A DNA stretch of 64,000 nt from Nitrospiraceae bacterium (GCA_021373015.1 JAJFTJ010000005.1:225072-289071), one strand, 5' to 3'. Numbered from the stretch's first letter, positions 13,068-40,571 are shown. Numbers and translations are program-made. Notes: generated by a model from the sequence alone, not told the origin.

Positions 13068-13099
13068 TCAAACATGCCAGTTAAATCAGGAGGTTTTCA

Positions 13100-13432
13100 A
13101 TGACAGAAGGTATTGTTGAGGCAACAAGTTCAAATTGGGAAAATGAAGTTATAAAAAACCAGGAATTAGTAATGGTTGATTTTTGGGCTGTTTGGTGTGG
13201 TCCTTGCAGAATGATAGCTCCTGTTGTTGAAGAACTTGCAAAAGAGTATGCAGGGAAAATTAAGGTTGCAAAGCTTAATACTGACGAAAATCCTGACATT
13301 GCCAGTAAATATAAAATAATGGGCATTCCAACAATAATTTTTTTTAAAAACGGTAAGATGATAGATCAGCTTGTAGGCGCTGTTCCTAAAAACCAGCTTA
13401 AATCCAAGATTGATTCCCTGCTGATTGCTTAG
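13100..13432 (+). CDS. trxA: Thioredoxin
   Basis: VDFWAVWCGPCRMIAP active site, 110 aa, AGGAGG RBS. Confidence 0.95.
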   Translation: MTEGIVEATSSNWENEVIKNQELVMVDFWAVWCGPCRMIAPVVEELAKEYAGKIKVAKLNTDENPDIASKYKIMGIPTIIFFKNGKMIDQLVGAVPKNQLKSKIDSLLIA

Positions 13433-13465
13433 GCTGTCATCGTTTTGAATATTCGAAGAGAAAAT

Positions 13466-13975: not shown

Positions 13976-13976
13976 T

Positions 13977-24085: not shown

Positions 24086-24117
24086 TTAACGGATTATCTG
24101 CAACAAGTGAAATTTAA

Positions 24118-24151
24118 CGGGAATTCGAAGGCTATGCCGCTTGAATTCCCG
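24118..24151 (+). terminator. Candidate hairpin after the TPR gene
   Basis: CGGGAATTC (24118-24126), 16-nt loop, GAATTCCCG (24143-24151). No T-tract. Confidence 0.25.
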
Positions 24152-24183
24152 CAGCCTTATCTTAAAAATAATGAGAGGTTAGA

Positions 24184-25374
24184 ATGCTTTCTGATAGAGT
24201 GAAGAAGATAAAACCATCGCCAACGCTTGAAATCGATGCAAAGGCAAAGGCGATGAAAGCTGCCGGAGCTGATGTTGTAAATTTTGGAGTCGGCGAGCCG
24301 GATTTTGACACGCCTGAAAACATAAAAGAGGCTGGCATTAAGGCTGTAAAAGACGGTTTTACTAAATACACTCCTGTTGGCGGAATAGACCAGCTTAAAA
24401 ATGCGATAATCGAAAAGTTCAAAAAAGACAACAGCCTTGAATACTCACGTGAAGAGATAATTGTTTCCTGCGGAGCAAAACACAGTCTTTATAATATCGC
24501 ACAGGCGCTTTATGGTTCAGGAGACGAAGTTATAATCCCATCGCCATACTGGGTTTCTTATCCTGATCAGGTATTGCTGAATGATGCAATACCTGTATTT
24601 GCAAAAACGCACGAGAAAGACGCATTCATGCTGAAGCCTGAAACGCTTAATGCATGCATAACAAACAGAACAAAAGCGATAATACTTAACACTCCATCCA
24701 ATCCCACAGGATTGACCTATGACCAGAATACACTTGAACAAATTGCGAAGATTGCAATTAAAAATAATCTTTATATAATCTCTGACGAAATATACGAGAT
24801 GCTCACATATGACGGATTTAAACATACAAGTATCGCGTCTCTTAGCTCTGAGATAAAGGCAAGGACGCTGGTTGTTAACGGTTTTTCAAAAGCCTATGCA
24901 ATGACTGGCTGGAGATTGGGCTATACAGCAGGGCCAAAAGACATTATAAAAGCCATGACTAATATCCAGAGCCAGTCAACATCCAACCCAAATTCTATCG
25001 CTCAAAAAGCTGCGGTAGAGGCATTGACAGGGCCTCAGGATTCATTAAGCGCGATGCTTGCAGAGTTTGACAGACGAAGAAAATTTCTTTCATCGGAGCT
25101 TAATTCAATTCGAGGAATAACATGCCTTACTCCAAAGGGGGCATTTTATGCTTTTCCAAATACATCAGGTCTTTACGGAAAAAGAGCCGGCAGCATAAAG
25201 ATAAAATCTTCATCAGATCTTGCAGTTTATTTACTTGAAAAAGCCAATGTTGCACTTGTCCCTGGCAGTGCGTTCGGAGACGACAATCATATCAGGCTTT
25301 CATATGCAACTTCAATGGACAACATAAAAAAAGGCGTTGAGAGAATAAAAAAAGCAGTAGATGAACTGCAATAG
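24184..25374 (+). CDS. Aspartate/aromatic aminotransferase (class I)
   Basis: NFGVGEPDFDTP, NTPSNPTG and SKAYAMTGWRLGY (PLP Lys). Confidence 0.9.
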   Translation: MLSDRVKKIKPSPTLEIDAKAKAMKAAGADVVNFGVGEPDFDTPENIKEAGIKAVKDGFTKYTPVGGIDQLKNAIIEKFKKDNSLEYSREEIIVSCGAKHSLYNIAQALYGSGDEVIIPSPYWVSYPDQVLLNDAIPVFAKTHEKDAFMLKPETLNACITNRTKAIILNTPSNPTGLTYDQNTLEQIAKIAIKNNLYIISDEIYEMLTYDGFKHTSIASLSSEIKARTLVVNGFSKAYAMTGWRLGYTAGPKDIIKAMTNIQSQSTSNPNSIAQKAAVEALTGPQDSLSAMLAEFDRRRKFLSSELNSIRGITCLTPKGAFYAFPNTSGLYGKRAGSIKIKSSSDLAVYLLEKANVALVPGSAFGDDNHIRLSYATSMDNIKKGVERIKKAVDELQ

Positions 25375-25410
25375 TTTTTAAGATAAGGGTCAAATTAAGA
25401 AGGTTTAATA

Positions 25411-25863
25411 ATGCTTGTGCAGATGACAGTCGAAGGGTTATTGTTTGATCCAAGAAGCAATATGTATATTCTGCTTCTTAAGGACGCAAGCGGAGCATCA
25501 ACCTTGCCGATCTGGATAGGAAAACCAGAAGCAGATTCAATTGCGCTTGCTCTAGGCCGTGTTGTAACAACAAGACCTTTAACGCATGACCTTATTAAAA
25601 GCCTTATGCAGACAATGGGCATGAGAGTTACAAGGATTGTTGTTAGTGAAGTTCTCGATAATACTTACTATGCGTTAATCTATTTTCATGACGGAATAAC
25701 CGAAAATTTCCTGGACTCAAGACCAAGCGATGCAATAGCAATCGCTCTAAGGATGAATGCTCCAATTTATGTTGAAGAAAATATAATCGAGAACAAAAGC
25801 ACAGATGAACTCGAGGAGTGGCTTAAAAATCTCAAACCTGAAGACTTCGGCAATGTGATGTAG
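25411..25863 (+). CDS. Bifunctional nuclease (BFN/DUF151) domain protein
   Basis: LPIWIGKPEADSIALAL...RPLTHDL...DSRPSDAIAIALR. Confidence 0.8.
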   Translation: MLVQMTVEGLLFDPRSNMYILLLKDASGASTLPIWIGKPEADSIALALGRVVTTRPLTHDLIKSLMQTMGMRVTRIVVSEVLDNTYYALIYFHDGITENFLDSRPSDAIAIALRMNAPIYVEENIIENKSTDELEEWLKNLKPEDFGNVM

Positions 25864-25885
25864 CTTTGTCATCGACAAAGAGTAA

Positions 25886-26626
25886 ATGTTAAAAAGAACT
25901 GAAGGCATTGTACTTAAGACAACTCCTTTCGGAGAAGCAGACCTAATAGTTACATACCTTACCTATGATTTAGGCCTTGCAAAGGCTTTTGCTAAAAGCC
26001 CACGAAAGACAAAAAGCAGATTCGGCAGTAGTCTGGAACCATTTACATATTCCAGGATTTCATTCTGGGGAAAAGAAAATGCCAATCTGCCAAAGCTTAC
26101 GCAGTCAGATATAATACTTCCGTTCAAATCAATAAGAGAGAACCTGAGCTGCTTTCTGCAGATGTCAGAGGCAATAGAGCTTACCTTGAACTTTATGCCT
26201 GAACACGAACAAAATAAAGAAGTTTTTAAATTGCTGTTTAATCTGCTGAAAGCTGCTGACAATAACTCTGATATTATATTGAAAATTATTCTTTACAAAA
26301 TACAATTTCTGTATCTTACAGGCTATGCGCCCAGGCTTGATGGATGCGCTGTTTGCGGAAAATCAGGATTAAGCTTTTATCTTTCGCACGGGTCGATTAT
26401 ATGTGAAAAATGCGCTTCGGGATTGAATTCACCCATGAAGCTTTCTCCTGCAGCAATAAAGTTTTATGAAAGCCTGAGCAGATGGAATATCTCATTGGTA
26501 AGCAGACTTAAGCCGTCGCAAAGTCTTGTCACAGAACTATCCAATATGCTTAATGACCATATAAGGTATACGCTTTCTAAGCCGTTAAAATCCAGATCTT
26601 TTGAAAATATTATTTCTAATAATTGA
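25886..26626 (+). CDS. recO: DNA repair protein RecO
   Basis: EGIVLKTTPFGEADLIVTYLT OB-fold start and zinc motif CAVCGK...CEKC. Confidence 0.85.
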   Translation: MLKRTEGIVLKTTPFGEADLIVTYLTYDLGLAKAFAKSPRKTKSRFGSSLEPFTYSRISFWGKENANLPKLTQSDIILPFKSIRENLSCFLQMSEAIELTLNFMPEHEQNKEVFKLLFNLLKAADNNSDIILKIILYKIQFLYLTGYAPRLDGCAVCGKSGLSFYLSHGSIICEKCASGLNSPMKLSPAAIKFYESLSRWNISLVSRLKPSQSLVTELSNMLNDHIRYTLSKPLKSRSFENIISNN

Positions 26627-26666
26627 ACTTTTTATAAAAATAGTATTTCAATAAACCTTATGCTTA

Positions 26667-29495
26667 CTAAATACTGACAAGCAGAGGCTTATGCGTGAAT
26701 AAAATAAAACTCTCTGTCTTTAAATGAAAAATTTTACTTGCGGCTTCTTTGTATAGTTTCATCTGTGCTTTATATCTTTCGGCTAGTTCGTCTATCTTGC
26801 TGTCTTTGACAGGAAAGGTCTTGTAATCATAAATTCTGGCAACCCCATTATCAATAATCACCCTGTCAATTCTGCCTTTGAAAATTGTTTTCCCGCGCTC
26901 AAGCATAAAAGGAAGCTCGCAGAATGCTTCTTTTCTTGGTAGTATTATTTTTTCAAGATAACCATTTGATCTCAAGTTTTCTATATCTTTAACAATAATA
27001 TTGCTGAGCGTTTTTATTTCCTGAATCGACATAAATTCATTTCTTAGAAGGAATGTTGAGCGTTCTTCTAACTTGTCCAGAGTTAATATCCCTTTTGAAA
27101 TTTCTTCGAATATTTTGTGCAAAACTATGCCGAGCAAAACCCAGTCTTTTCCGTGTTTTGACCTTATGTCAATATCTTCTGTAACATCCTGCCATTTGCT
27201 TTCAGGTTCGTAAAATATAGCATCTGTAAATTTCTGTTCTTGTTCTAATTTTTTTTGGTAAATACTATGATCAGGAGAATGCTGTTTTTTAATTTTTAGT
27301 TCATTTACATCTGATTCAGTCAATATGTCAAAGAATTCAGTTTTTTTGTTTATCAGTTCATTTTTTGCTATGTCAAAGTTAGCCATCAAATATCCAAGCC
27401 TTCCTGATGCCTGTTTATCCTTATTGTGAACACCAACCATGCACAAAAGATCTCTTGCCCTTGTTACAGCAACATAGAATAAGCGCTTTTCCTCTTCAAG
27501 CTCTTTTTCTTTTCTGAGAACGAAGAGGGGGATTTTATTTCTTTTTGCAGAGTCTTCTTCATATGCCATTGAAAAACGTTCATTATCTTCATCTATAACT
27601 ATTGACCCGCTTCTTAAGAAACTAGGTTCATCCATCGAAGGCAGAAATACTATCGGGAACTGAAGGCCTTTTGCAGCATGAATAGTCATTATCTTTACAG
27701 CATTCATTCCTTCCGTATTAATATTTGCCTTCGGTTCATCACCGTCCCTTGCCCTGATAAGTTTTTCCCTGATATGAAGATTTGAATAACCAGCGGTTTC
27801 ATATGATTCTATTATTTTTATGAACTTTTTAATATTTGCTAGGCGTTGTTTTTCCCATAAAAATTGCCAAGCCCCTGTATCAGTCAGAGCGTCTTCAATA
27901 ATTATTGCAAGAGATAATGTCTTTGATTTCTCGATCAGGATACTGAGAATGCCCAAACATTTGCTTATTGCTTCATCGTCACTTTGTTCCTTAAGTTTCA
28001 AAAATAAAGGTTTATCTTCATTTGCAAAAGAGAGAAGGGTATTGTAATCAACGCCAAATAACGGACTTCTTAAAATACAAAAAAGGCTGTAGTCATCAAA
28101 TGGGTCGACAATAAATAATACAAGTTCTCGAAGCAAGGCAACTTCAGGCTCGTCATAAAAACCGATTCCCTTTACAACAATGAATGGAATGCTTTCTTTT
28201 CTCAGAGCATTCTCAAAAGCAGAAAGGTGTGTCCGTCTCTTTAAGAGAATTGCCATGTCAGCGTAGATACACGGCCTTTTCTTTTCTTGATCATATATTT
28301 CATAAGAACCTATTAAAGAATTAATTCTTTTTGCAATTGCGGACGCTTCTTTTGTTCGGTTCTTCTTTGTATTTTCTTCTGAGTTTAGAAGAATAAGTTC
28401 AACATGCCCATCGCCGCTTCTTGTGGCCTCAAATGGCAGATACCTGCATCGCCAGCTTTCGATTAAAGCAGTGGACATTATTTTTTGAAATAAATTATTC
28501 GTGAAATTTATTATAGGCGGGAGGCTTCTATAATTTTCTTTTATTTCCTGAAAAAAATAATCTTCTCCAAGCCATCCTGACAGCTTTTTTTTTGCTTCCT
28601 CAAACACTCCTGAATTTGCTCCTCTGAAGAGATATATAGACTGCTTATCATCCCCTACCAGAAAAATCGTAGGAATTTTTCCAGTATCTCTTTTCGAACC
28701 AATGCCTGAGCGCCATTCTTCAGTAAGCTTGTCGATTATCTTCCATTGCAGGAAATTTGTGTCCTGAAATTCGTCAACAAGTATGTGGTCGGTATGCTCG
28801 TCAAAGGCATAAAGAATATTCTGCCATTCGCTGTGTTTTAAAAGAGCATTATATGTAAGAAGCTCCAGATCATTAAAATCAAGCAGATGTTTTTTATTCT
28901 TTTTTTGCCTGTATCTTTCAAGACATTTCGAGAATAACTGCAGTATTCTGTATTCTCCAGTCTCCGGAGCCGGACAGTTTGTTTCAAGGAGCATCTCAGA
29001 TACAGGCCTTTTGTTATATAAGTCATGGAGCATGGAATAAACCTTGTCAAATCCTTTTATTCCTCTTTCTTTCATCATCTCAAAAAAAAGACCCTGTGTT
29101 TCCCTTTCTTCCATAAGACATTCATAAACAGTTTCAGTCCATAGAAGTGATGCAGTGAATTCATCTGTTATCTCGATAGACGGATCAAGGCCAAGTTCAA
29201 TAGAAAAACGTTTTAAAAGCTTTAGACAAAAGGCGTGTATTGTCGAGATACGAATCAAGGGCATTCTGTCTTTAATTTTTAAAAAAAGGTCAGTATTCTC
29301 TTTTTCAAGAATATTTAGGATTCTCTCTTTCATTTCTGCCGCAGCTTTATCTGTGAATGTGATGCAGAGAATTCTTTCTATCTCAGAACCGCTTTCCAGC
29401 AGACTGATATAGCGCCTTGCCAGTTTCTCTGTTTTGCCTGAGCCTGCTGGTGATGAGATGACAACGCTTTTGGATATGTCGAGATATTTTTTCAT
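26667..29495 (-). CDS. addA: AddA-type helicase-nuclease (UvrD-like helicase with C-terminal PD-(D/E)XK nuclease)
   Basis: SSPAGSGKTEKLARR (Walker A), VDEFQDTN, YVAVTRAR and C-terminal GRIDRVI...IYDYKT. Confidence 0.85.
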   Translation of the reverse strand: MKKYLDISKSVVISSPAGSGKTEKLARRYISLLESGSEIERILCITFTDKAAAEMKERILNILEKENTDLFLKIKDRMPLIRISTIHAFCLKLLKRFSIELGLDPSIEITDEFTASLLWTETVYECLMEERETQGLFFEMMKERGIKGFDKVYSMLHDLYNKRPVSEMLLETNCPAPETGEYRILQLFSKCLERYRQKKNKKHLLDFNDLELLTYNALLKHSEWQNILYAFDEHTDHILVDEFQDTNFLQWKIIDKLTEEWRSGIGSKRDTGKIPTIFLVGDDKQSIYLFRGANSGVFEEAKKKLSGWLGEDYFFQEIKENYRSLPPIINFTNNLFQKIMSTALIESWRCRYLPFEATRSGDGHVELILLNSEENTKKNRTKEASAIAKRINSLIGSYEIYDQEKKRPCIYADMAILLKRRTHLSAFENALRKESIPFIVVKGIGFYDEPEVALLRELVLFIVDPFDDYSLFCILRSPLFGVDYNTLLSFANEDKPLFLKLKEQSDDEAISKCLGILSILIEKSKTLSLAIIIEDALTDTGAWQFLWEKQRLANIKKFIKIIESYETAGYSNLHIREKLIRARDGDEPKANINTEGMNAVKIMTIHAAKGLQFPIVFLPSMDEPSFLRSGSIVIDEDNERFSMAYEEDSAKRNKIPLFVLRKEKELEEEKRLFYVAVTRARDLLCMVGVHNKDKQASGRLGYLMANFDIAKNELINKKTEFFDILTESDVNELKIKKQHSPDHSIYQKKLEQEQKFTDAIFYEPESKWQDVTEDIDIRSKHGKDWVLLGIVLHKIFEEISKGILTLDKLEERSTFLLRNEFMSIQEIKTLSNIIVKDIENLRSNGYLEKIILPRKEAFCELPFMLERGKTIFKGRIDRVIIDNGVARIYDYKTFPVKDSKIDELAERYKAQMKLYKEAASKIFHLKTESFILFTHKPLLVSI

Positions 29496-29517
29496 TTTTA
29501 TTCAAAATATCATAAAG

Positions 29518-29527
29518 GTATCCTTTT
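29518..29527. repeat. Left copy of 10-bp direct repeat GTATCCTTTT
   Basis: Read directly. An identical 10-mer lies at 35248-35257 at the other end of the block separating addA from addB. Confidence 0.5.
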
Positions 29528-29578
29528 AGCAATCTTATCCTTTTTCTTCTTTCCAAGTTTTTTGATATAATCGGGAAT

Positions 29579-30226
29579 ATGAAAAAACAGGGTGGCATCA
29601 AACAACCATATACATTCACTGGAAGAGAATATGATGCTGAGACTGGAATGTATTATTATCGTGCAAGGTATTATGATCCGAATAGCGGGAGATTTATCTC
29701 AAAGGATCCGATTGGTTTTAAAGGTGGGGATGTGAATTTATATAGATATGTCGGAAATAATCCCATAAATATTATTGATCCGTTTGGATTACACGAAGTG
29801 CATTTTATACCAATTTATCATACTCTTAAACCTACATACGATCATTTGGTAATAACCTATGACGACAAAGGTATCCCAGTAAATATAAGCTCTGGAAGCA
29901 TCAAGCCAGATCCAAAGCAAGATAATTGCAAAAAAGGATGTCCGACTATTGAAAGCAGATCATATGATTTTGTACGAGATGATTTTCCAAAAACACTGAA
30001 GCGTGCAGATCAAACAAGGTATCCGGCGTTGTTTATTGGTACAGTACCAACCACTGCGTCAAATCCAAACAATAATAATACGCGTAGTGCTAAAGGTGTT
30101 TGGATTCATAAGGGCTACAAAGATAGGACATGTGCAGAAGGGTGCTTAACGATCGACCCAACTGATTGGGAGAAATTTATGAAGAACTTCCCAAAGGGTT
30201 CGACCGGAAAAGTCATAGTTTGGTAA
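29579..30226 (+). CDS. Orphan Rhs-core C-terminal fragment fused to a variable toxin-like domain
   Basis: YTFTGREYDAETGMYYYRARYYDPNSGRFISKDPIGFKGGDVNLYRYVGNNPINIIDPFGL is the end of the RHS-repeat-associated core, about 70 aa only with no Rhs shell upstream. A 145-aa unrelated tail follows. Confidence 0.75.
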   Translation: MKKQGGIKQPYTFTGREYDAETGMYYYRARYYDPNSGRFISKDPIGFKGGDVNLYRYVGNNPINIIDPFGLHEVHFIPIYHTLKPTYDHLVITYDDKGIPVNISSGSIKPDPKQDNCKKGCPTIESRSYDFVRDDFPKTLKRADQTRYPALFIGTVPTTASNPNNNNTRSAKGVWIHKGYKDRTCAEGCLTIDPTDWEKFMKNFPKGSTGKVIVW

Positions 30227-30242
30227 TTAAAAAGGAGCTAAA

Positions 30243-30848
30243 ATGTTTTACAAGAAAGAAACAATGACAATTTTGAGCATTTTGGTAATTACAATATTAT
30301 TTGGTACTCTGGCCAATACAGAACAAAAAAATAAACTGCCAAGGTCTTATGGACCGCTTTATTTAGGCATGTCTGTAAAAGAGTTTAAAAAAATTTTTGT
30401 TGGTGTAGATCTCGCTAGATGTGTACATTGTGCAGAGGAAGAACTTGAAGCAGACTTATGCATTACAAAAGAATCTCGGAGTACTAATCTATGTGATAAT
30501 GTGAATCCCATCAAATTCAAGGATGCATATGTAACATTTCAACCAAACGAATTGAAAACTAACAAAATAACATGCTTCTTTTATAAAGGAGTGCTATACG
30601 ACATTGTGATGGGAAATATTGCAGCTAAAGTAGGCTCCGTTAAAGAGCATTATATAAAAGATTTAGGCAAACCAACTGCTGATGCTGTGTGGGATACAGG
30701 ATTATCACAGTTGCGATGGGAGCACGCTTCAACTATGTTAAGTGTCACTTTTGCTACTGAAAAAACCTCGAAAAAAAATGATGATGATTTTATTGAAATT
30801 AGATATACAGATTTAAAAATCCTAAAGCAGCTTCCACAGGGGAAATAG
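30243..30848 (+). CDS. Exported hypothetical protein, candidate cognate immunity protein
   Basis: Starts 16 nt after the toxin ORF. N-terminal signal/anchor TILSILVITILFGTLA. No family recognised; the call rests on position. Confidence 0.4.
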   Translation: MFYKKETMTILSILVITILFGTLANTEQKNKLPRSYGPLYLGMSVKEFKKIFVGVDLARCVHCAEEELEADLCITKESRSTNLCDNVNPIKFKDAYVTFQPNELKTNKITCFFYKGVLYDIVMGNIAAKVGSVKEHYIKDLGKPTADAVWDTGLSQLRWEHASTMLSVTFATEKTSKKNDDDFIEIRYTDLKILKQLPQGK

Positions 30849-30955
30849 ACCAGAAAAGGGGATGAATCAGAAAATAGAACCGTCTCGTTTTCTGTTCTGG
30901 AAGCAAAAAATATCATTCTGTAAAAAAGTTTTTTCAATCAGAAGAATAAAACAGT

Positions 30956-30967
30956 GTGAAAATTCAC
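30956..30967. promoter_or_regulatory. 12-bp palindrome GTGAAAATTCAC abutting a -35-like TTGATT; candidate Crp-family site
   Basis: Perfect inverted half-sites GTGAA/TTCAC. It is the reverse complement of the 12-mer at 41287-41298. Followed by TTGATT (30968-30973), 18 nt, TATATT (30992-30997). Confidence 0.45.
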
Positions 30968-31006
30968 TTGATTTGCTTCTTAGTCATCCAGTATATTTCA
31001 TGGGTA

Positions 31007-31513
31007 ATGAAAACACTTGCAATTATAATATTTTTTATTTTTACTGCATCAACAGCCTCTGCCCTCAGTGTAAATGACAATGCGCCTTTATTTTCTTTAA
31101 GAGACAGCGATGGAAAGTTTTTCTATCTGAGCAATTATATCGGTTCAAATAGAAACAGCTCTTCAAAAGGCGTTATCATAAACTTTTTTGCATCAACCTG
31201 TATTCCATGCAAAAAAGAACTTCCAATTCTTAACTCTATTGTTGATGAATTCAGAAAAAAAGGCATAGAGATTGTGATAATCGGATACAAAGAAGATTTT
31301 AATAAAATTGGAGAGATGCTTAATGCATTAAGTGTTGATAAGCCTGTAATTCTCAGCGATATATACGGCAAAGTTGGAGAGAAGTACGGAGTAATAGGAC
31401 TGCCGCTGACACTAATAATCAATAAAGACGGAAAAGTAAAAGAAATTATCTGGGGAGAAAGAGCTAATATAGACAAAATATTAAGAGAGAAAACAGGACG
31501 ACTGCTGAAATGA
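31007..31513 (+). CDS. Exported thioredoxin-fold (TlpA/redoxin-like) protein
   Basis: Signal peptide MKTLAIIIFFIFTASTASA. FFASTCIPCKKELP CxxC motif. The track GTG start at 30956 lies inside the palindrome, so ATG 31007 is preferred. Confidence 0.8.
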   Translation: MKTLAIIIFFIFTASTASALSVNDNAPLFSLRDSDGKFFYLSNYIGSNRNSSSKGVIINFFASTCIPCKKELPILNSIVDEFRKKGIEIVIIGYKEDFNKIGEMLNALSVDKPVILSDIYGKVGEKYGVIGLPLTLIINKDGKVKEIIWGERANIDKILREKTGRLLK

Positions 31514-32142
31514 AAAGAACCTTGGTAATTCTATTTGTGATTTTTTTAATAACACCGCTTTTTGCCGCTGAAAAATCTTCTAATCTCAAGGATCAAAAAG
31601 CAAAAACTCAGAACACAAAAGCACCAGAGAATATAAAGCTTGTAGAAAACTATGTTGCGATTTTTGACCTTGAGACGCAGGGCGTGGACAAAAAGATCTC
31701 CCGTCCATTAACAGATAGTATAATTTTGGAGATAGTTAAGACTGGGAAATATGAAGTCATAGACAGAAGCAACATGAACAAGGTGCTCAGTGAGCAGAAA
31801 TTTCAGCTGTCAGGATGTGTATCAGGGCAATGCGTGGTAGAGGCAGGCCAGCTTCTTGGGGTTGGGAAGATAATAGTTGGTTCTGTGGGCATAGTAGGCA
31901 GTACTTATTATCTTTCGCTTTCACTGATAAATGTAACCACAGGAAAGATAGAAACATCCTCAGAAGACAAATGCAAGTGCGCAATAGATGAGCTTATAGA
32001 ATCAAGCAAAAGACTTGCAAAGAAACTGATGGGAGAAAAAATTGATGCAGTAACAACAACAAAACCAGAGATAAAACCAGAAACAACTCCAGTGACAAAA
32101 CCAACAACAGGAACTACAACAAGACCAACTCGTTTTCGCTGA
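31510..32142 (+). CDS. Exported CsgG/FlgO-like domain protein with Thr/Pro-rich tail
   Basis: ATGA overlap with the upstream gene. YVAIFDLETQ...YEVIDRSNMNKVLSEQKFQLSGCVSGQC..AGQLLGVGKIIVGSV. Tail TTTKPEIKPETTPVTKPTTGTTTRPT. Confidence 0.6.
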   Translation: MKRTLVILFVIFLITPLFAAEKSSNLKDQKAKTQNTKAPENIKLVENYVAIFDLETQGVDKKISRPLTDSIILEIVKTGKYEVIDRSNMNKVLSEQKFQLSGCVSGQCVVEAGQLLGVGKIIVGSVGIVGSTYYLSLSLINVTTGKIETSSEDKCKCAIDELIESSKRLAKKLMGEKIDAVTTTKPEIKPETTPVTKPTTGTTTRPTRFR

Positions 32143-32291
32143 TAATTTATGCATAATTTTAGCAGGAGAAAGTCCTTGTTTTATGGCCATTTAAGTTTTT
32201 TCTTTTATTAACTTGCTAACTACCTTCCTTTCTCTTCTATTTTTTGCTATTCTTTGTTTATATTCATACCATTTGCAGGTAAGGAGGAACA

Positions 32292-33506
32292 ATGAATGCT
32301 GTTGAGATAAAATCCGGCATATTCTGGGTCGGAGCAATAGACTGGGCTGTAAGAGATTTTCATGGTTATGTTATCCCTCGCGGAACAACATATAACAATT
32401 ATCTGGCATTAGATGATGAGGTAACGCTTTTTGATACTGTTAAGTATGATTTTGCAGAGACAACGATTAAAAATATAAAGTCTGTTGTTGATCCCTCTAA
32501 AATTAAACACATAGTTATCAATCATATTGAGAATGATCACGCAACAAGCCTCGACAGATTAATGGAATTATCCCCTGATGCTGTCATCCATATAACCGAG
32601 AAGGGGAGAAAAGGGCTTGAGAGATTTTTTGATATCTCAAGATGGAATATCAAAACAGTAAAAACAGGCGACACACTGAAAATAGGCAAGAGAACGATTC
32701 TATTTATCGAAACACCAATGATCCACTGGCCTGATTCAATGATGAGTTATATAAAAGAAGAAAAGCTGCTAATAAGCCAGGATGGATTTGGACAACATAT
32801 TGCATCTGCTTCAAGGTTTGACGATGAGTTTATTAACTGCGCTTCGATGTCTGAACTCGAGGACAGTGTTGTTGATTATTACTCGAACATACTAATGCCT
32901 TTTGGCAGACTGATAAAGTCAAAGCTGGATGAGATAAAAAAGATGGGTCTTCAAATAGATATGATCGCTCCGGATCACGGCATAATCTGGAGAAAGAACC
33001 CAGAAAAAGTAATCCAGATGTATATTGATATGGTAAATGACAAGGCAGACCTGAGTGTTTCGATTATTTATGACACAATGTGGCTTGCCACAGAACGCAT
33101 GATATCTCCTATTATGCAGGGAATAAAAGATGAAGGATTAGGATGCAAGGTAATTAAACTCAGAGCAACGCCTACAAGTATGGCTATCAAGGAGTTCTGG
33201 AAATCAAGAGGAACTCTGATCGGAACACCAACTTTGAATAATTTGATGTATCCTTCCATAGCTGAATTTTTATCTCATTTAAAAGGACTGAGACCAAAGA
33301 ACAGAATCGCTAGTGCATTTGGAAGCTACGGGTGGGGCGGCGGAGCTGTAAGGGAAGTATGCGAAGAATTCAAGAAAATAGGTCTTGAGACAGTAGATCC
33401 CGGCATACAGGTGCTTTACAGGCCATCTTTGGAAGACGAAAAGATGTGTTACGAATTCGGCAGAGAATTTGCAAAGAAAACAAAAGAGTATCATAATAAA
33501 TTTTAA
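32292..33506 (+). CDS. Flavodiiron protein (FprA / rubredoxin:oxygen or NO oxidoreductase type)
   Basis: FWVGAIDWAVRDFHGY...GTTYNNYL. Di-iron ligands NHIENDH. C-terminal flavodoxin-like domain (VSIIYDTMW). Confidence 0.9.
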   Translation: MNAVEIKSGIFWVGAIDWAVRDFHGYVIPRGTTYNNYLALDDEVTLFDTVKYDFAETTIKNIKSVVDPSKIKHIVINHIENDHATSLDRLMELSPDAVIHITEKGRKGLERFFDISRWNIKTVKTGDTLKIGKRTILFIETPMIHWPDSMMSYIKEEKLLISQDGFGQHIASASRFDDEFINCASMSELEDSVVDYYSNILMPFGRLIKSKLDEIKKMGLQIDMIAPDHGIIWRKNPEKVIQMYIDMVNDKADLSVSIIYDTMWLATERMISPIMQGIKDEGLGCKVIKLRATPTSMAIKEFWKSRGTLIGTPTLNNLMYPSIAEFLSHLKGLRPKNRIASAFGSYGWGGGAVREVCEEFKKIGLETVDPGIQVLYRPSLEDEKMCYEFGREFAKKTKEYHNKF

Positions 33507-33518
33507 GGAGAGGGAATT

Positions 33519-33656
33519 ATGGCAATTTGGAAATGTTCTGTATGCGGTTATGAGTATGACGAGGCAGTTGAAGGAATCCCTTTTGAAAAACTTCCCGACG
33601 ACTGGAAGTGTCCTGTGTGTAATGCTCCTAAAGACGCTTTCGTAAAAATTAAATAG
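33519..33656 (+). CDS. Rubredoxin (45 aa; absent from the supplied ORF track)
   Basis: My translation is [45 protein letters not shown]. It has two CxxC pairs, and GGAGAGGG lies upstream of the ATG. Confidence 0.9.
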
Positions 33657-33683
33657 CATTATTTAATCAGGAGGATAATTGCA

Positions 33684-35198
33684 ATGAAAAACAAGTCCAT
33701 TAAAAAGGCTTTCTTGTTTGTTTTTCTTTCCTCTCTAGCATTGTTTTTAATTGGGGCTGCTCAAAAAAAAGAAGTAAAGAGCAGGATAGTTTTAAGCTCC
33801 CAGACACAGGCATGTATAACATGCCATAAACTATATACGCCAGGAATTGTCGAAGACTGGCTGACAAGCAAACATTCAAAAATAACTCCAGGGGAAGCTC
33901 TAAAAAAACCTGCCTTACAGAAAAGAGTATCAGCTGATTCATTTGCAAAAGAATATTTAGGTGTTGTAGTCGGTTGTTATGAATGCCACAGCCAGAATCC
34001 GGACAAGCACAAAGATAATTTTAACCATATGGGGTTTATTATAAATGTCATTGTTGCTCCAGGGGATTGCAATACCTGTCATCCAGTTGAATTTAAACAG
34101 TTTACTGGCAGTAAAAAATCTAACGGGTATAAAAATATATGGAATAATCCTGTTTATCACAAATATATAAACACAATAACAGGTTTGAAAAAAATAGAAA
34201 ATGGAAAGATAACAGTAAGCGAGCCGACAGCTTCAACGCTTCAAGAGACATGTTTTGGATGTCATGGCGCAAAAATAGAAGTGAGAGGCACTAAAAAAAT
34301 TAATACCCAAATAGGAGATATAGAGGTTCCTGATCTTGCAAACTGGCCTAATCAGGGTATTGGCAGAGTAAATCCAGACGGCACAACCGGTTCATGCACA
34401 GCCTGCCATCCCAGACATAGTTTTTCTATAGAGATTGCAAGGAAGCCATATACCTGTTCGCAATGTCACCTTGAGCCTGATGTTCCTGCATATAATGTGT
34501 ATAAAGAGAGCAAGCATGGAAATATCTATTCTTCAAAGTACCAGGAATGGAATTTCAATTCAGTGCCATGGGTTGTAGGAAAAGATTTTACAGCTCCTAC
34601 TTGCGCAGCTTGCCATAACAGCCTGCTTGTTTCTCCAAATGGGAAAATTATTGCAGAAAGGTCGCATGATTTTGGTTCAAGACTGTGGGTAAGGCTTTTT
34701 GGGCTTATATACAGCGCTCCACAGCCAAAATCAGGTGATACGACAATAATTAAAAATAAGGATGGGCTGCCATTGCCAACTACTTTTTTAAATGAACCTG
34801 CATCAGAGTATCTGCTTGATAAAAAAGAACAGGCAGAAAAGTTCAAGATTATGCATAGCGTATGCAACAGCTGCCATAACAAGGAGTGGATCGATGGACA
34901 TTTTGCAAAGCTGGATAACACGATTAAAGAAACGAATGAAATGACGCTTGCAGCCACGAAATTGATGATTGAGGCATGGGAAGAAGGCATAGAGGATAAA
35001 ACAAATCCATTTGACGAAACTATTGAACAACTGTGGGTAAAGCAGTGGTTCTTTTATTCAAACGCCATACGATATGCCTCTGCCATGACTGGAGCTCCTG
35101 ATTACACTGCTTTTAAACTAGGATGGTGGGAGCTGACAAACAACCTCAGAATGATGAGGGATATGATAGACTTTAAAAAACAGCTGAAGAAAAAATAG
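33684..35198 (+). CDS. Exported octaheme c-type cytochrome (possibly HAO-like family)
   Basis: Signal peptide plus eight CxxCH motifs: CITCH, CYECH, CNTCH, CFGCH, CTACH, CSQCH, CAACH, CNSCH. Confidence 0.85.
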   Translation: MKNKSIKKAFLFVFLSSLALFLIGAAQKKEVKSRIVLSSQTQACITCHKLYTPGIVEDWLTSKHSKITPGEALKKPALQKRVSADSFAKEYLGVVVGCYECHSQNPDKHKDNFNHMGFIINVIVAPGDCNTCHPVEFKQFTGSKKSNGYKNIWNNPVYHKYINTITGLKKIENGKITVSEPTASTLQETCFGCHGAKIEVRGTKKINTQIGDIEVPDLANWPNQGIGRVNPDGTTGSCTACHPRHSFSIEIARKPYTCSQCHLEPDVPAYNVYKESKHGNIYSSKYQEWNFNSVPWVVGKDFTAPTCAACHNSLLVSPNGKIIAERSHDFGSRLWVRLFGLIYSAPQPKSGDTTIIKNKDGLPLPTTFLNEPASEYLLDKKEQAEKFKIMHSVCNSCHNKEWIDGHFAKLDNTIKETNEMTLAATKLMIEAWEEGIEDKTNPFDETIEQLWVKQWFFYSNAIRYASAMTGAPDYTAFKLGWWELTNNLRMMRDMIDFKKQLKKK

Positions 35199-35247
35199 TT
35201 CTAGTACAGACAGAGGAGACTAGCGAAAAGCCTGTGCTTAGTAAGTA

Positions 35248-35257
35248 GTATCCTTTT
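35248..35257. repeat. Right copy of 10-bp direct repeat GTATCCTTTT
   Basis: Read directly, 10 nt from the addB stop codon. Partner at 29518-29527. Confidence 0.5.
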
Positions 35258-35266
35258 TTTAAATTA

Positions 35267-37993
35267 TTAAGAAGTTTGGATATAGGGACAGTATGGTTTT
35301 TCACTGCACATTCTGCAGGTTTGTTCATTTAATGGATTGGCTGTAAAATCTCCCTTTCTCATCTGCAGTACGGTTTTTTCTAGATACTGAAGACCAATTT
35401 TAATATAGTCTTCGAGTATTCGTCCTTCCTTAATGTCAGTTTTGCCTGGTATCCATGTAATTTTTGTGTCCTTCAGGGAATATAATCCTACTCTATTTAT
35501 CTTGAAACCCAGAGATTTCATTAATGCAGCATACAAAAACAACTGCAAGGTTGCGCCTTTGTTGATTATTTCCGATCTGTTTAACTGAACAGAGCCTGTT
35601 TTATAATCGATTAATTCTACTGAATCGGCTTTTTTGTCTATCCTGTCGATCTTTCCTCTTAGTTTTATCCCACTTAAAACTTCTCCTTCAACTTTAGGCT
35701 CAGCTCTCATGAATGAATATCCTTCTTTTGCTAACTTACTTTCAATTTCATATATTTCAGGCAGTAATGAAATAAAAGAATCTTTGACAAAATTTTTCCA
35801 GTATTGATCTAACAACTGGTTTTTAAGAAGCTCTTCAATGATTATTTCTGCGTTTTTCTTTAATTCTTCATAATCTTTAAATGATTTTGATATGAGTTTT
35901 TCCATGATCTGATGAATTATTATTCCAAGCAATAACCCTTCGATCTCATATTCTTTTGCTTCGAGCGGTTCAAGGCCTAAAAGTTTTTCTACAAAAAACT
36001 TTCTCGGACATGTTCTGTACTGATCTATTGATGTCACGCTGATAAAGGATGTTTCTGAAAAATATTTATCGAGCAATCTATTTTTGACTGTATGTATCTC
36101 TTTAATGAAATTTGACAATGGTGTTCTCCCTTTATATAACAACTCCTCTTCTTTGTTTAAAATTCCAGGGATGGATTCTATTACTTCGGCTTTCCAGGGA
36201 AGAAAAGGCGAGGGGAGAAAAAACTTATCTCCTTCCATAGCAGGATATGAAAGGCTTAGATTCACAGATGCTTCCAGAAGACGATGAAAGATAAATTTTT
36301 GGGAATAAAGGTATCTCTTCATGTCGACAAATCCTAATTCTTTCCTTGCGCTATCAGGAAGGATATGATCTATGTCAGGCATAGAGGGAATGTCGCCGTC
36401 TTTCAATCCTCCAATATAAAGGTATTCCGGAGATGAACTTCTTAGATCAAATAATTCTGTTACGTGCACTCCTGAACCTTCTGTTTGTATCTCTGACATA
36501 TTCAAAATGTATCTCAGGTCTTCTATAAATCTGCGCAATCCTGTTTCGTTTGTACAATTCTGGGGGAAAGCGTCCATTAGAGAGAATTCTTTCAATACAT
36601 TCGAAAGCTGTTCCTTAATGCCATGGTCTTCGAAAGAGAACTCTAAATTATCGACAATATTCATGAGTGCATTTGAAATTTCACTATACGTCCCGGATTT
36701 CTTTATTGATTCAAGAGGAATAAGCTTGTTGAATATGTGCTTGAGTTCCTGTTCAAACTCTGAAGGAATTTGCATATCATTGTCATAGCGTGAATCGCAA
36801 AGGTTTTTTAGATTAAGCCATGAATTCTTGCCCTTAATTAGCCCGGAGTTTAGGGATATTCTTGGCAGCCATTCTTTGAATGACAAAGGAATTTTTTTAA
36901 AATATGGGGATGTCAGAAACTGAGAAAAATAAAGTCTGGGGTAATCATCCTCGATTGATTCTAGCATGGCAAATAGATCAAGAAATGGTTTTGTGTTTCC
37001 TGTTGGTTTTGAAAGTAAAAATGTACATGGAATTCCATATCTTTTAAATGTCCTCTGGACAATCGAATAGTAAGGGCTGAGTTTTGGAAAGGCAACAGTT
37101 ATCTTGTCTAGCATTTTATATTTGCCAGATATATAGATGTTTTTTATATTCCTGGCAATGCCTTCGACTTCTTCGTCAATTCCAGGAAAAGGGTGAAACA
37201 CAACATTTCTGCTGCTTTTTTCAGTCTGTAAGGTCTCTAAATCAGACTTAAAGTTATTTATAAGAAAATTATTTAAAGTACCTGTTATTGAAGTAAAATT
37301 ATCTTCACTAGGAATTGCTATTACTGTTTCTTCAGAATTTTCTATAAGATTTTTTAGTATCAGTTTCTCAACAGGTGTTATCTCATAAAAATGATCAATT
37401 ATTAAGGTTTTGTGTCTGTATTTATATGTGCTTATTAATTCAGGGCATTCAACAAGAAGATCATTTTCATCTTTAAGATTATTTTCTAACAGCGCTTTCT
37501 GGTATTTTTTTAATATTGTAATTGCATTAATCGCTCTCTTTGATACTTCTTCAGGTATATTTAATTTACTGAAAATATTTATTAACTCATTCTGGATTTC
37601 TCCCAGGTCTTTCCCGGGGCGGTATTGTTTAATTTCATCTATAAAATTGCTTACCATTGATGCGAAACCAATACTCTGACCTGTTAAGGACGAAATTATA
37701 ACAGGGATTATAGGCTTGGATATTATGTTTTTGTTTCCGTATAGAAGATAAAGTTTTTTCGCCAGATTTTTTATAGTCATCATTTCAGGAGGTATGTATG
37801 CTCCACCAACCAGACTGTGGAAGACTTTTAGAGATTCGCTTATTTTATTGTGAGTAGGGGCAAGATAGAGTATGCCTGAATAGTCTTTGTTTTTAATCCC
37901 AGTTATTGCCTGCTTTAAAAGCTTTTCAGTAAAGCCCCTGTAATTAAACGGGACATGAAAAACCCTTACATTCTTGGAATAACTTTCAAGCAT
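35267..37993 (-). CDS. addB: AddB-type nuclease subunit (PD-(D/E)XK with Fe-S cysteines)
   Basis: C-terminal LRGKIDRIDK...ELIDYKTG nuclease motif. Cys set CPRKFF...CRMCSEKPYCPY typical of the AddB iron-sulfur staple. 908 aa. Confidence 0.8.
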   Translation of the reverse strand: MLESYSKNVRVFHVPFNYRGFTEKLLKQAITGIKNKDYSGILYLAPTHNKISESLKVFHSLVGGAYIPPEMMTIKNLAKKLYLLYGNKNIISKPIIPVIISSLTGQSIGFASMVSNFIDEIKQYRPGKDLGEIQNELINIFSKLNIPEEVSKRAINAITILKKYQKALLENNLKDENDLLVECPELISTYKYRHKTLIIDHFYEITPVEKLILKNLIENSEETVIAIPSEDNFTSITGTLNNFLINNFKSDLETLQTEKSSRNVVFHPFPGIDEEVEGIARNIKNIYISGKYKMLDKITVAFPKLSPYYSIVQRTFKRYGIPCTFLLSKPTGNTKPFLDLFAMLESIEDDYPRLYFSQFLTSPYFKKIPLSFKEWLPRISLNSGLIKGKNSWLNLKNLCDSRYDNDMQIPSEFEQELKHIFNKLIPLESIKKSGTYSEISNALMNIVDNLEFSFEDHGIKEQLSNVLKEFSLMDAFPQNCTNETGLRRFIEDLRYILNMSEIQTEGSGVHVTELFDLRSSSPEYLYIGGLKDGDIPSMPDIDHILPDSARKELGFVDMKRYLYSQKFIFHRLLEASVNLSLSYPAMEGDKFFLPSPFLPWKAEVIESIPGILNKEEELLYKGRTPLSNFIKEIHTVKNRLLDKYFSETSFISVTSIDQYRTCPRKFFVEKLLGLEPLEAKEYEIEGLLLGIIIHQIMEKLISKSFKDYEELKKNAEIIIEELLKNQLLDQYWKNFVKDSFISLLPEIYEIESKLAKEGYSFMRAEPKVEGEVLSGIKLRGKIDRIDKKADSVELIDYKTGSVQLNRSEIINKGATLQLFLYAALMKSLGFKINRVGLYSLKDTKITWIPGKTDIKEGRILEDYIKIGLQYLEKTVLQMRKGDFTANPLNEQTCRMCSEKPYCPYIQTS

Positions 37994-38031
37994 AAAAATA
38001 GGATAACTGATTTACAAGTATTATTAAAAGA

Positions 38032-39234
38032 TTATGTCCTGTAGCTGGCATTAACCTTAATATATTCTTCTGTCAAATCACAGGTTAAAACCTTTGCAGA
38101 TGCCCTGCCTTTATTAAGGTTAACAATTAGTTTTATCTCATTATTATTCTTTAGATATTTTTCTGCCAGCTTGTCTTTGTTTGTTGAGATGCCTTTTGAG
38201 GCTACTTTTACATTGCCAATAAATATATCGACCTTGTTTTCGTCAAAAGCTATTTCAGAATACCCGATTGCAGCCATGATACGTCCCCAGTTTGCATCAT
38301 TGCCATAAACTGCAGTTTTTACAAGATTAGAATTAGCAATTGAAAATGCGGCTGTTTCTGCTTCTTTTTCATTTGATAAACCTTTAACCTCTATTTCTAC
38401 TAGTTTTGTTGCTCCTTCACCGTCTTTGACTACAAGCTTCGAAAGCTCATATGTGATCTCATCCAGAGATTTTTTGAATGTTTTATAAACAGGAGAGTTT
38501 TTTGTGATTTCTTTATTCCCGATCATCCCATTAGCCATTATCAATACAGTGTCATTTGTGGACATATCACCGTCTATTGTAATTCTGTTAAATGACTTAT
38601 TTACAGAATCTTTGAGGGCAGCAGACAATGTTTTTTTCTCTACTGCAATATCTGTAATCATAAAACAGAGCATTGTTGCCATATCAGGACATATCATTCC
38701 TGCGCCTTTGCATATCCCTGCAATTATTCCAATTTTGCCGTCGATTTTTAGTTTTTTGCTAATAATTTTAGGGAAAGTATCCGTTGTCATGATTGCAGAT
38801 GCAACATCGTCAAACGTTGCTTGCCCCAGACCATTGGTGAGCTTGGGAAGTACAGATTGAATTTTCCCCATAGGAAGAGGAATACCTATCACGCCGGTGG
38901 AAGCGATATAGACAAGAGAAGGTTTTATTTTTATCTTAGCAGCAATAATATCTGCAATTCGGCAGGCATCTTTCATGCCTTGTTTGCCTGTGCATGCATT
39001 AGCATTACCGCTGTTTACTACTATTGCCTGACCTTCATTGGATTCAATCTTTTTCATATCGAGCTTAACAGGCGCTGCCAGTACTTTATTTTTTGTAAAC
39101 ACACCAGCAATATTTGCCTTTGTCTCTGAGTATATAAGAGCGATATCTTTCCTGCCGGGCTTTTTAATGGCAGCTTCTTCAACAGAAAACAAAAAACCTT
39201 TTATGGAATTTTTATGCAATTTGTCCTTAATCAT
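38032..39234 (-). CDS. argJ: Bifunctional glutamate N-acetyltransferase / amino-acid acetyltransferase ArgJ
   Basis: GFLFSVEEAAIKKPGRKD and the autoprocessing site PDMATMLCFMITD. Confidence 0.95.
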   Translation of the reverse strand: MIKDKLHKNSIKGFLFSVEEAAIKKPGRKDIALIYSETKANIAGVFTKNKVLAAPVKLDMKKIESNEGQAIVVNSGNANACTGKQGMKDACRIADIIAAKIKIKPSLVYIASTGVIGIPLPMGKIQSVLPKLTNGLGQATFDDVASAIMTTDTFPKIISKKLKIDGKIGIIAGICKGAGMICPDMATMLCFMITDIAVEKKTLSAALKDSVNKSFNRITIDGDMSTNDTVLIMANGMIGNKEITKNSPVYKTFKKSLDEITYELSKLVVKDGEGATKLVEIEVKGLSNEKEAETAAFSIANSNLVKTAVYGNDANWGRIMAAIGYSEIAFDENKVDIFIGNVKVASKGISTNKDKLAEKYLKNNNEIKLIVNLNKGRASAKVLTCDLTEEYIKVNASYRT

Positions 39235-39332
39235 CTTTTGTATTTTATACCTTTCCTTTTATTTTGCAAGCGATTTCTTGCGCTTGTTTTCATCCATGGA
39301 ATAATGTAAAATCTTGTTTTGAATTAACACGC

Positions 39333-40571
39333 ATGGTTAAACTATTTACATACATAAAAGATAAAGTTTTTATATTCTTTGCTGTGTTCTGGCAGTCTGT
39401 TAAATCTTTTTTAAAGAACGACAATTCTAATATAGCAGCTTCATTGGCTTACCATTCTTTGTTTGCGATAATTCCTTTATTATTACTTTTGTTTTTTGCG
39501 CTCAGCTTCTTTATAACATCCTCAAGAGCAGTAATGTCCAGAATTACGTCTTTAATCTCCGAGTTTATTCCTTATTACAGCGAGACGATTCTGCAAGAAG
39601 TTTATTCTCTGTCAAAACATCAAAGTATATGGGGGATAATAAGCGTTCTCACTCTCATGTGGGCTGCAACACCGCTGGTTAGCACTCTTCGCAAGGCTTT
39701 TTTTGATATATTTAAAATAGAGGAAAGGCCTTCTTTTTTAAAAACAACCTTGCTTGATATTGGAGTGATACTTCTTACTCTCACGATCTTTGTTCTTCTC
39801 AGCTTCACACATGTGACATTCAAAAGCATACATATTTTAGGAGAAAGCACCGCTTTTTACAATGCAGCGTCATACACTGTTACAGTGATGATAATATCCG
39901 TATTTTATCTTGCATTTGTCCCTGTTAAGACATCATTTCTTTACGTTGCAACTGGCGCCATTATAACGACATTTTTCTGGGGAATTATCAGGCCAGTATT
40001 TGGATTGTTTTTATCTTATAACCCTCAGTATGGCATTGCCTTTGGTTCATTAAAAGCATTGTTTATAATCATAATATGGATTTATTATTCGTTCAGCGTA
40101 TTACTCTTTGGCGCAGAAATAATTGCCAATCTCAGAAGAAAAGATGTCTTGCTTATAAAAAAACTGTTTTATGAAGATTACAGCAGCAAAACAAAATCCA
40201 GACTTAAGAATAAATTCGGCAAAAGCTACAAAAGCGGAGACCTGATTTTTAAGCAGGGGCAGAAGGGTGACGAAATGTTTTATATCCTCTCTGGTGGCGT
40301 AAGATTAACCTTGCCATCCAAATTACAGAATAACAATGAAAACGAACAAATAATCAGAATTATGAAAAAAAATGAGTACTTTGGTGAAATGGCGCTTCTT
40401 ATTGGCACTCCCAGAACAACGAATGCTTATGCTGAAAATGATGATACAATTATAATTAAGATAAATCCTCAAAATTTTGAAACTCTTTTAAGAGAGGAAC
40501 CAAAGATTGCAACAATGCTGTTAAAAGAACTTGCCCAGAGGTTAAAAAAAACCAATGAATTTCTTTGTTAA
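39333..40571 (+). CDS. YihY/BrkB-family membrane protein fused to a C-terminal cyclic-nucleotide-binding domain
   Basis: N-terminus SNIAASLAYHSLFAIIPLLLL plus about six TM helices (YihY pattern). C-terminus GDLIFKQGQKGDEMFYILSG...YFGEMALLIGTPRTTNAYA (cNMP beta-roll with Arg-Thr). Start ATG 39333 or TTG 39264. Confidence 0.8.
   Translation: MVKLFTYIKDKVFIFFAVFWQSVKSFLKNDNSNIAASLAYHSLFAIIPLLLLLFFALSFFITSSRAVMSRITSLISEFIPYYSETILQEVYSLSKHQSIWGIISVLTLMWAATPLVSTLRKAFFDIFKIEERPSFLKTTLLDIGVILLTLTIFVLLSFTHVTFKSIHILGESTAFYNAASYTVTVMIISVFYLAFVPVKTSFLYVATGAIITTFFWGIIRPVFGLFLSYNPQYGIAFGSLKALFIIIIWIYYSFSVLLFGAEIIANLRRKDVLLIKKLFYEDYSSKTKSRLKNKFGKSYKSGDLIFKQGQKGDEMFYILSGGVRLTLPSKLQNNNENEQIIRIMKKNEYFGEMALLIGTPRTTNAYAENDDTIIIKINPQNFETLLREEPKIATMLLKELAQRLKKTNEFLC

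Follow-up and report, generated by a model that had tools for sequence, protein, structure and literature searches.

The split addB-addA locus of a Nitrospiraceae bacterium: probably an old rearrangement fixed in one clade rather than a recent insertion

The addB-addA Locus and the Age of Its Split

In the stretch of DNA analysed here, 64,000 nucleotides (nt) from a Nitrospiraceae bacterium (GCA_021373015.1, JAJFTJ010000005.1:225072-289071; hereafter the window), the genes for the two subunits of an AddAB-like helicase-nuclease lie on the minus strand, addB ahead of addA, and are separated by 5,771 nt (positions 29496-35266) filled with genes read from the opposite strand. The account favoured, with a probability of about 0.8, is that this split is an old rearrangement fixed in one clade of Thermodesulfovibrionales-type Nitrospirota and not a recent discrete insertion, and that the 10-bp direct repeat at the edges of the block, GTATCCTTTT, is a product of chance. 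The initial annotation of this DNA had taken the block for an insertion and the repeat for a target-site duplication or recombination scar; this interpretation is not supported, because the split is clade-wide, the 10-mer is absent from the relatives, and the contents and sizes of the block vary.

Relatives were collected by a profile scan, with one genome per species and an alignment of AddB, and their loci were then searched by tblastn with the proteins of the window. Neighbour joining of AddB groups the split-type genomes in a single clade (200/200 bootstraps), whose sister clade is of the adjacent type; the clade with the window counts eleven relatives, none of which has addA directly after addB, and across it the identity of AddB to that of the window is only 54-62%. 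The nearest relatives of the window (L001, L008, L015, L002, L030, L082/83, L087 and L088; AddB 56-59% identical to that of the window) have genes for a flavodiiron protein and a cytochrome between addB and addA, on the opposite strand and in the same order, where the sequence reaches far enough. In a comparison of the proteins of the locus with those of the window, AddA is 62-74% identical, AddB 57-59%, and the flanking genes overall 57-80%.

Regarding the extent of the block, its size ranges from 3.9 to 9.3 kb in the relatives where addA was seen, and the contents differ. L088 reads argJ, addB, a group of genes on the other strand (HEAT, an 89-amino-acid (aa) open reading frame (ORF), cytochrome, rubredoxin and flavodiiron), addA, and then recO, a BFN-domain gene and an aminotransferase gene, again on the other strand; this outer gene order is exactly that of the window, and L087 is like L088 minus the cytochrome. 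Larger versions of the block occur in L001, L008, L015 and L082/83, with rubrerythrin in place of rubredoxin and with extra genes on the addB side, namely ArsR, cNMP/GAF, PilT-like ATPase, RtcA, FadL, TusA, DsrE and HEAT-repeat genes; a search for these genes and for rubrerythrin elsewhere in the window returned only weak matches to cNMP-domain paralogues.

As for the ancestral state, the gap between addB and addA is 0-48 nt in 15 loci that include a Nitrospira outgroup (L004, L006, L007, L009, L010, L011, L012, L016, L019, L020, L022, L024, L026, L028 and L029), and the two genes overlap by 17 nt in L089, which is the same contig as L006. The sister clade, the Nitrospira outgroup and the majority of the other relatives in the group all show adjacency or overlap, so that adjacency is best regarded as ancestral and the split as a single event of long ago; on this point the initial annotation, which had described a once adjacent pair now parted by opposite-strand genes, is supported. 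The overlap in the sister clade also suggests that the two genes are translationally coupled. A contiguous addB-addA pair would have been interrupted in the common ancestor of the clade by chromosomal genes of opposite strand, presumably by insertion rather than by a more complex rearrangement.

Other genes were found after addB outside this pattern. In L014 (12827-13699), L017 (12947-13945), L021 (8831-9706) and L023 (3100-4056), addB is followed by a gene for a patatin-like phospholipase, read from the same strand; it stands between addB and addA in L014, L021 and L023, while the 4 kb available for L017 contain no addA. These loci come from another group of Thermodesulfovibrionales-type relatives, and the pair was interrupted there a second time, independently. 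In L013, the segment after addB (12889-14945) holds a UPF0047 gene and a type I restriction-modification methylase gene, and in L081 (3136-5248) it holds GIY-YIG, response-regulator and IS200-type Y1 transposase genes; no addA was seen after addB in L003 (12758-22610).

The 10-bp Repeat at the Block Edges

The left copy of GTATCCTTTT (29518-29527, plus strand) lies inside the spacer between the -35 and -10 hexamers of a promoter-like element of addA, and the right copy (35248-35257, plus strand) in the 68-nt spacer between the convergent stop codons of the cytochrome gene and addB; elsewhere in the window the sequence occurs only once, on the other strand, at 50885. These positions had been given correctly, as had the 41-nt addB-addA spacer (22 + 10 + 9 nt) that would be left after deletion of one copy and of the interior. 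The odds of a chance match, first put at about 1 in 50-200, were also about right: a direct 10-mer common to the 83-nt and 68-nt spacers arises in 0.9-1.0% of shuffles, and 1.4% is expected for spacers of these lengths at the empirical rate over all 276 intergenic spacer pairs of the window, which makes it roughly a 1-in-80 event. A direct 10-mer is shared by 32 of the 276 pairs (12%), and the left spacer matches three other spacers too; a 1% event is unremarkable when a 64-kb window is scanned.

The loci of the split-clade relatives contain neither GTATCCTTTT nor its complement at either edge of the block. At the position homologous to the left copy, L088 has AAAAGATTAC on the addA strand, a match of 8/10; the right copy is without counterpart in any relative, and the DNA abutting addB on the right side is different in every relative examined. 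It had been expected that, after an insertion, genomes lacking the block would show adjacent addB and addA with a single 10-mer, and it had been stated beforehand that the same split without repeats would speak against it: none of the genomes of the nearest clade has addB and addA adjacent, and none has the 10-mer. Neither an empty site with one copy of the repeat nor the same flanking repeat in other carriers was found in that clade; the adjacent-type genomes form a different clade, too distant for the spacers to be compared. The match at the two edges is best explained as coincidental, the left copy being part of the spacer of the addA promoter.

Genes of the Block

The block is, as first described, of opposite strand throughout; the eight plus-strand genes then counted between 29579 and 35198 come down to seven credible ones, namely six ORFs of 168-504 aa and a rubredoxin of 45 aa, all on the plus strand, and the remaining 71-aa ORF at 30862-31077 is doubtful.

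A module for oxygen/nitric-oxide defence makes up the conserved core of the block; it is composed of a flavodiiron protein, rubredoxin or rubrerythrin, and a multihaem cytochrome. In the window, the flavodiiron protein (32292-33506, plus strand) is of the O2/NO reductase type, with ODP and Flavodoxin_1 matches and a score of 402 bits for NF008887, below the cut-off of that model; it is 71-77% identical to the products of the genes in the same place in L001, L008, L015, L087 and L088. The multihaem c-type cytochrome (33684-35198, plus strand; 504 aa), which matches Multi-haem_cyto and related families, is 68-71% identical to its counterparts in L001, L008, L015, L082/83 and L088. The rubredoxin gene (33519-33656, plus strand) stands between these two and is below the size of the default ORF listing; it was recognised from a PF00301 call in the identical contig L086, and L087 and L088 have this small gene too. 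The module resembles the flavodiiron and rubredoxin/rubrerythrin stress clusters of anaerobes, since the flavodiiron gene (metallo-beta-lactamase-like plus flavodoxin) adjoins rubredoxin in the window, L087 and L088, and rubrerythrin in L015 and L083; it differs from them in being coupled to a multihaem cytochrome of about 500 aa and in being lodged between the genes for two subunits of a recombination enzyme.

To this old redox core are joined four genes seen only in this genome, so that the block is a composite. They occupy the addA side (29579-32142), and none of the loci of relatives searched (L001-L085) contains a homologue of any of them between addB and addA. The four are a 5'-truncated Rhs toxin tip and a putative immunity gene, both treated in a later section, a thioredoxin-like gene and a lipoprotein gene. 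The thioredoxin-like ORF (31007-31513, plus strand) would encode a secreted thioredoxin-fold protein of the ResA/TlpA type, with AhpC-TSA, Redoxin and ResA matches; an alternative start is possible at a GTG at 30956, and the gene called in L086 is that of 168 aa. The lipoprotein-like ORF (31510-32142, plus strand) has a weak CsgG/LpoB-like domain (CsgG, E = 8e-7) and a Thr/Pro-rich tail; a 12/24-nt tandem repeat at 32054-32109 encodes this Thr/Pro/Lys-rich C-terminus.

Where these four genes sit was traced through the spacers. The spacer on the flavodiiron side (32143-32291) aligns with positions 219-267 of L001 (p = 0.002), and the spacer on the addA side with positions 224-288 (p = 0.004); the matching segments of L001 overlap and are contiguous, and 2.7 kb lie between their counterparts in the window, which places the four genes within what was once the divergent control region of the flavodiiron gene and addA. 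A duplication flanking them is not claimed, as the two spacers of the window align with each other at p = 0.2. In the later remodelling of the locus, the relatives would have come to carry their addB-side extras, and the lineage of the window instead its four addA-side genes, placed between the conserved motif on the flavodiiron side and the addA promoter.

No sign of mobility accompanies the block. The GC content is 0.33-0.40 both within and outside it, and the GC content at third codon positions and the codon-usage distance of its genes fall inside the spread shown by window genes of comparable length; the composition and codon-usage scans proposed at the outset thus revealed no anomaly of the block against the rest of the window. 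Pfam and NCBIfam scans of the six block ORFs of at least 168 aa and of four neighbouring genes, with the Pfam calls of L086 covering rubredoxin, yielded no integrase, transposase or other recombinase, as the initial annotation had noted; scans of the window found no tRNA gene and no relevant Rfam family or tandem repeat, and a repeat search over 26000-39500 found no terminal inverted repeats, only imperfect repeats at chance level. Finally, the Logan assembly of SRR15035646 (L086) has 13,709 bases identical to window positions 22980-36688, that is addA, the whole block and part of addB, and this independent agreement makes an artefact of a single assembler unlikely.

Expression of addA and addB

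Upstream of addA, a promoter-like element conserved in the clade occupies 29504-29532 on the minus strand; it ends 8 nt before the ATG, without a visible Shine-Dalgarno sequence. It comprises a -35 hexamer TTGCTA (29532-29527), a 17-nt spacer, and a -10 hexamer TATTTT (29509-29504) preceded by TG (29512-29511), the TG and -10 region reading TGATATTTT (29512-29504). When the 75 nt upstream of addA were aligned for six genomes (window, L088, L087, L001, L008 and L015), ATTGC, 17-18 nt and TGnTATTYTGA were found to be kept in the window, L088, L087, L001 and L008, with ATTAC in L015; the conserved -10-like element ends 5-8 nt before the ATG of addA, and nothing resembling a Shine-Dalgarno sequence lies between. 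The hexamers match 8/12 consensus positions, which is below the threshold of the consensus scan, and the counts of promoters and terminators in that scan are at the level of shuffles. Conservation of the element in intergenic DNA that is otherwise unalignable argues for a function, and the early proposal that TTGCTA, 17 nt and TATTTT form the promoter of addA gains from it.

Since the intervening genes are antisense, addA cannot be reached by read-through from addB. It would be transcribed from its own promoter (TTGCnn, 17-18 nt, TGnTATTYT), and, as this ends 5-8 nt before the ATG, the messenger would have little or no leader; the geometry suggests a leaderless or near-leaderless transcript. 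As for addB, it would be carried on the transcript of argJ (38032-39234, same strand), 38 nt upstream of it, with which it may be co-transcribed.

A second conserved element lies on the other side of the four window-specific genes. The motif TTTTTTGCTATTCTTT (32240-32255, plus strand), 37 nt upstream of the flavodiiron gene, has a 14-nt core that recurs as an exact single copy in the flavodiiron-addA spacers of L001 (17692-17705), L008 (21901-21914), L015 (8855-8868) and L088 (16528-16541), although protein identity among these genomes is only 57-77%; a regulatory site is the probable reading. In the relatives, the flavodiiron gene and addA diverge from a spacer of 165-330 nt, and this motif of 14-16 nt stands 60-110 nt upstream of addA. 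GC-rich palindromes, such as CCCCTCCTAAAATAGGAGGGG, also occur within the AT-rich spacers between the flavodiiron gene and addA in L001 (17560-17680), L008 (21740-21850) and L088 (16440-16480), and resemble small repetitive extragenic palindromes; the window has none.

Alternative Explanations

Insertion of the whole 5.7-kb block as one unit into an intact addB-addA junction, with GTATCCTTTT as its target-site duplication or scar, can call on a repeat that is real, in direct orientation and present in both flanking spacers, on a residual spacer of 41 nt that falls in the 0-48 nt range of the adjacent-type relatives, and on a chance level of only about 1%. It is nevertheless extremely unlikely, because the split is common to the whole 200/200-bootstrap clade with the same core genes, order and orientation, the repeat is present in no relative, and the block combines old parts with lineage-specific ones and has no recombinase, inverted repeat or compositional anomaly; furthermore, with AddB at about 58% identity and spacers alignable only at regulatory motifs, a perfect 10/10 match is not expected to persist unselected. 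The 10-mer could also be a short functional motif used twice, a protein-binding or ribosome-binding-like element that reads AAAAGGATA(C) on the addA strand: the addA/addB strand of the two spacers holds three copies of AAAAGGATA, two upstream of addA and one immediately past the addB stop, a local alignment of the two edge spacers gives p = 0.026, and the left copy is within the conserved promoter region. However, the sequence is conserved at neither place in the relatives (8/10 on the left in L088, nothing on the right), the count of AAAGGATA in the window, 12 over both strands, is nothing unusual for DNA of 37% GC, and the right copy has no gene following it on that strand; a functional motif is thus unlikely.

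As for the junction being an integration hotspot, which a mobile flavodiiron/cytochrome island entered independently in several lineages, the patatin-like gene of L014, L017, L021 and L023, the type I restriction-modification methylase gene after addB in L013 and the GIY-YIG and IS200-type transposase genes of L081 attest to other occupants of the place. Independent entries are very unlikely all the same: the genomes that carry the flavodiiron block form a monophyletic group, L087 and L088 have the outer synteny of the window (argJ-addB and addA-recO-BFN-aminotransferase), as one event predicts, the block proteins (68-77% identity) are in step with the flanking genes (57-80%), and no recombinase was found in or beside the block of the window, L001, L015, L082/83, L087 and L088. 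A mis-assembly or binning chimera might be suspected in a metagenome-assembled genome, here a contig of 371 kb, but it can be given next to no weight, as the independent Logan assembly of SRR15035646 is 100% identical over the 13.7 kb that span the block and the same arrangement is present in at least eight other assemblies from other samples.

Against an old, clade-wide rearrangement as the full account of the locus stand several points. No close relative occurs in the databases searched, where the best AddB besides the genome's own is 61-62% identical; an exact-sequence look-up returned no recorded contig for the AddB of the window and only the same organism, 100% identical, for the Rhs fragment, and a metagenome scan with AddA, dominated by matches to the generic UvrD motif DEFQDTNF, gave no close relative, only helicases of 24-44% identity. 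Outside addB and addA, the gene content of the sister clade is different, which makes a simple insertion indistinguishable from a multi-step rearrangement, and the arrangement is not uniform within the clade, since its members L003 and L081 are without addA or a flavodiiron gene within 10 kb of addB. The branch that leads to the window arises close to the base of the split clade, and parsimony on the tree alone makes no difference between a gain of the four genes there and one loss in the sister lineage; a gain in the lineage of the window is favoured here because the first of the four is a 5'-truncated Rhs fragment. Promoter activity and the leaderless transcript are deduced from sequence conservation, and the 1% coincidence might be explained otherwise.

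The AddA-like and AddB-like Proteins

The initial annotation had placed addB at 37993-35267 and addA at 29495-26667, both on the minus strand, and these ORFs and the architectures of their products were borne out. The AddA-like protein (26667-29495, minus strand; 942 aa) is a superfamily 1 (SF1) UvrD-like helicase with a C-terminal RecB-family PD-(D/E)XK nuclease, as expected for AddA, with Pfam scores of 184 bits for UvrD-helicase, 130 bits for UvrD_C and 37 bits for PDDEXK_1 (residues 788-923), and its N-terminus aligns with those of the relatives from residue 1. The AddB-like nuclease subunit (35267-37993, minus strand; 908 aa) has ADDB_N (35 bits) and PDDEXK_1 (109 bits), and its cysteines C662...C893-x2-C896-x5-C902 are invariant across 32 sequences; such a four-cysteine pattern (C...CxxCxxxxxC) is that of the iron-sulphur staple, and cluster binding is known from Bacillus AddB. 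The best NCBIfam matches are below their cut-offs for both AddA (addA_alphas 355 bits vs 861; addA_Gpos 344 vs 708) and AddB (addB_Gpos 81 bits vs 904; addB_alphas 71 vs 487), so that AddAB-like is the safe name: the domain architecture marks the two proteins as a divergent AddAB-like lineage and not as certified equivalogs.

In general, addB and addA are co-transcribed neighbours, an arrangement that the 5,771 nt of antisense genes preclude in the window. In comparison with the AddAB (RexAB) operons of Firmicutes and Proteobacteria, both subunits have the same domain architecture and the addB-first adjacency is ancestral in the group of the window; the differences are that here the two genes, on the same strand, are 3.9-9.3 kb apart in the genomes where addA was seen, that antisense redox genes fill the interval, stably across the clade, and that the two subunits, at 908 and 942 aa, are compact and fall well short of the equivalog cut-offs. 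Splitting of an AddAB locus is already a known kind of event, as the two genes were colocalised in 20/21 Firmicutes, all except Clostridium tetani, and in 13/13 Proteobacteria (Rocha et al. 2005, PMC1193525).

The Rhs Fragment and the Putative Immunity Gene

The first gene of the block (29579-30226, plus strand; 215 aa) is an orphan, 5'-truncated C-terminal fragment of an Rhs protein, with a score of 95 bits for TIGR03696 (cut-off 32.5). The Rhs-associated core spans residues 6-71 and ends in IIDPFGL, with the DPxGL motif, and is followed by a tip of 144 aa that belongs to no known family; resemblance to Rhs sets in upstream of the ATG, at about 29561, and there is neither a full-length rhs gene upstream nor any other Rhs-like sequence within the 64-kb window. 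A perfect extended -10 sequence, TGATATAAT, is present at 29564-29572, 6 nt before the ATG of the fragment.

The tip is common only to P0122 and P0123, two short metagenomic proteins, the first of which has Rhs repeats upstream of it. Searches with the tip in Pfam (E up to 10), in the sequences of the PDB (E up to 10) and in PADLOC gave no match, and an AlphaFold2 model from the three-sequence alignment had a mean predicted local distance difference test score (pLDDT) of 40 and was unusable. Its residues WIHKG...EGCLTI may resemble the active site of an L,D-transpeptidase. The ORF that begins 16 nt after the fragment (30243-30848, plus strand; 201 aa) has a hydrophobic, signal-peptide-like N-terminus; it has no Pfam, NCBIfam or PADLOC family and is absent from the loci of the relatives. 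From its position it is likely to encode the immunity protein, with the Rhs tip as the putative toxin.

Orphan Rhs toxin modules have been described, for example in Salmonella (PMC3967940). The module of the window resembles orphan Rhs C-terminal toxin/immunity modules in its core ended by DPxGL, its variable tip, its small downstream ORF and its missing N-terminal Rhs repeats; it differs in that no full-length rhs gene lies upstream, the fragment standing alone beside the addA promoter, and in that the tip belongs to no described family.

Conclusions

In conclusion, judged by the features that define such events and could be tested, the block between addB and addA does not appear to be a mobile-element insertion, and a split operon with a 10-bp flanking repeat is here to be read as an old, fixed rearrangement with a coincidental repeat, which should not be pursued as a new mobile element. 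Split AddAB loci as such were already known; what is new is a clade-wide addB-addA split in a Thermodesulfovibrionales-type lineage, and the window adds to it an isolated Rhs toxin tip of an undescribed family.

As for a possible functional link of the redox cluster to DNA repair, it is doubtful that one redox/stress regulator co-controls oxidant defence and double-strand-break repair in these anaerobes, with the addA messenger leaderless and the lodging of the module between the two genes no accident; if this were true, the lineage of the window would later have uncoupled oxidant defence and addA by gaining the genes that came with the Rhs fragment in the spacer. Judging from the conserved promoter-like element, the split clade has evidently evolved a separate promoter for addA with almost no leader, and the locus would thus exemplify the rewiring of a gene, probably once coupled in translation, when its operon has been broken.

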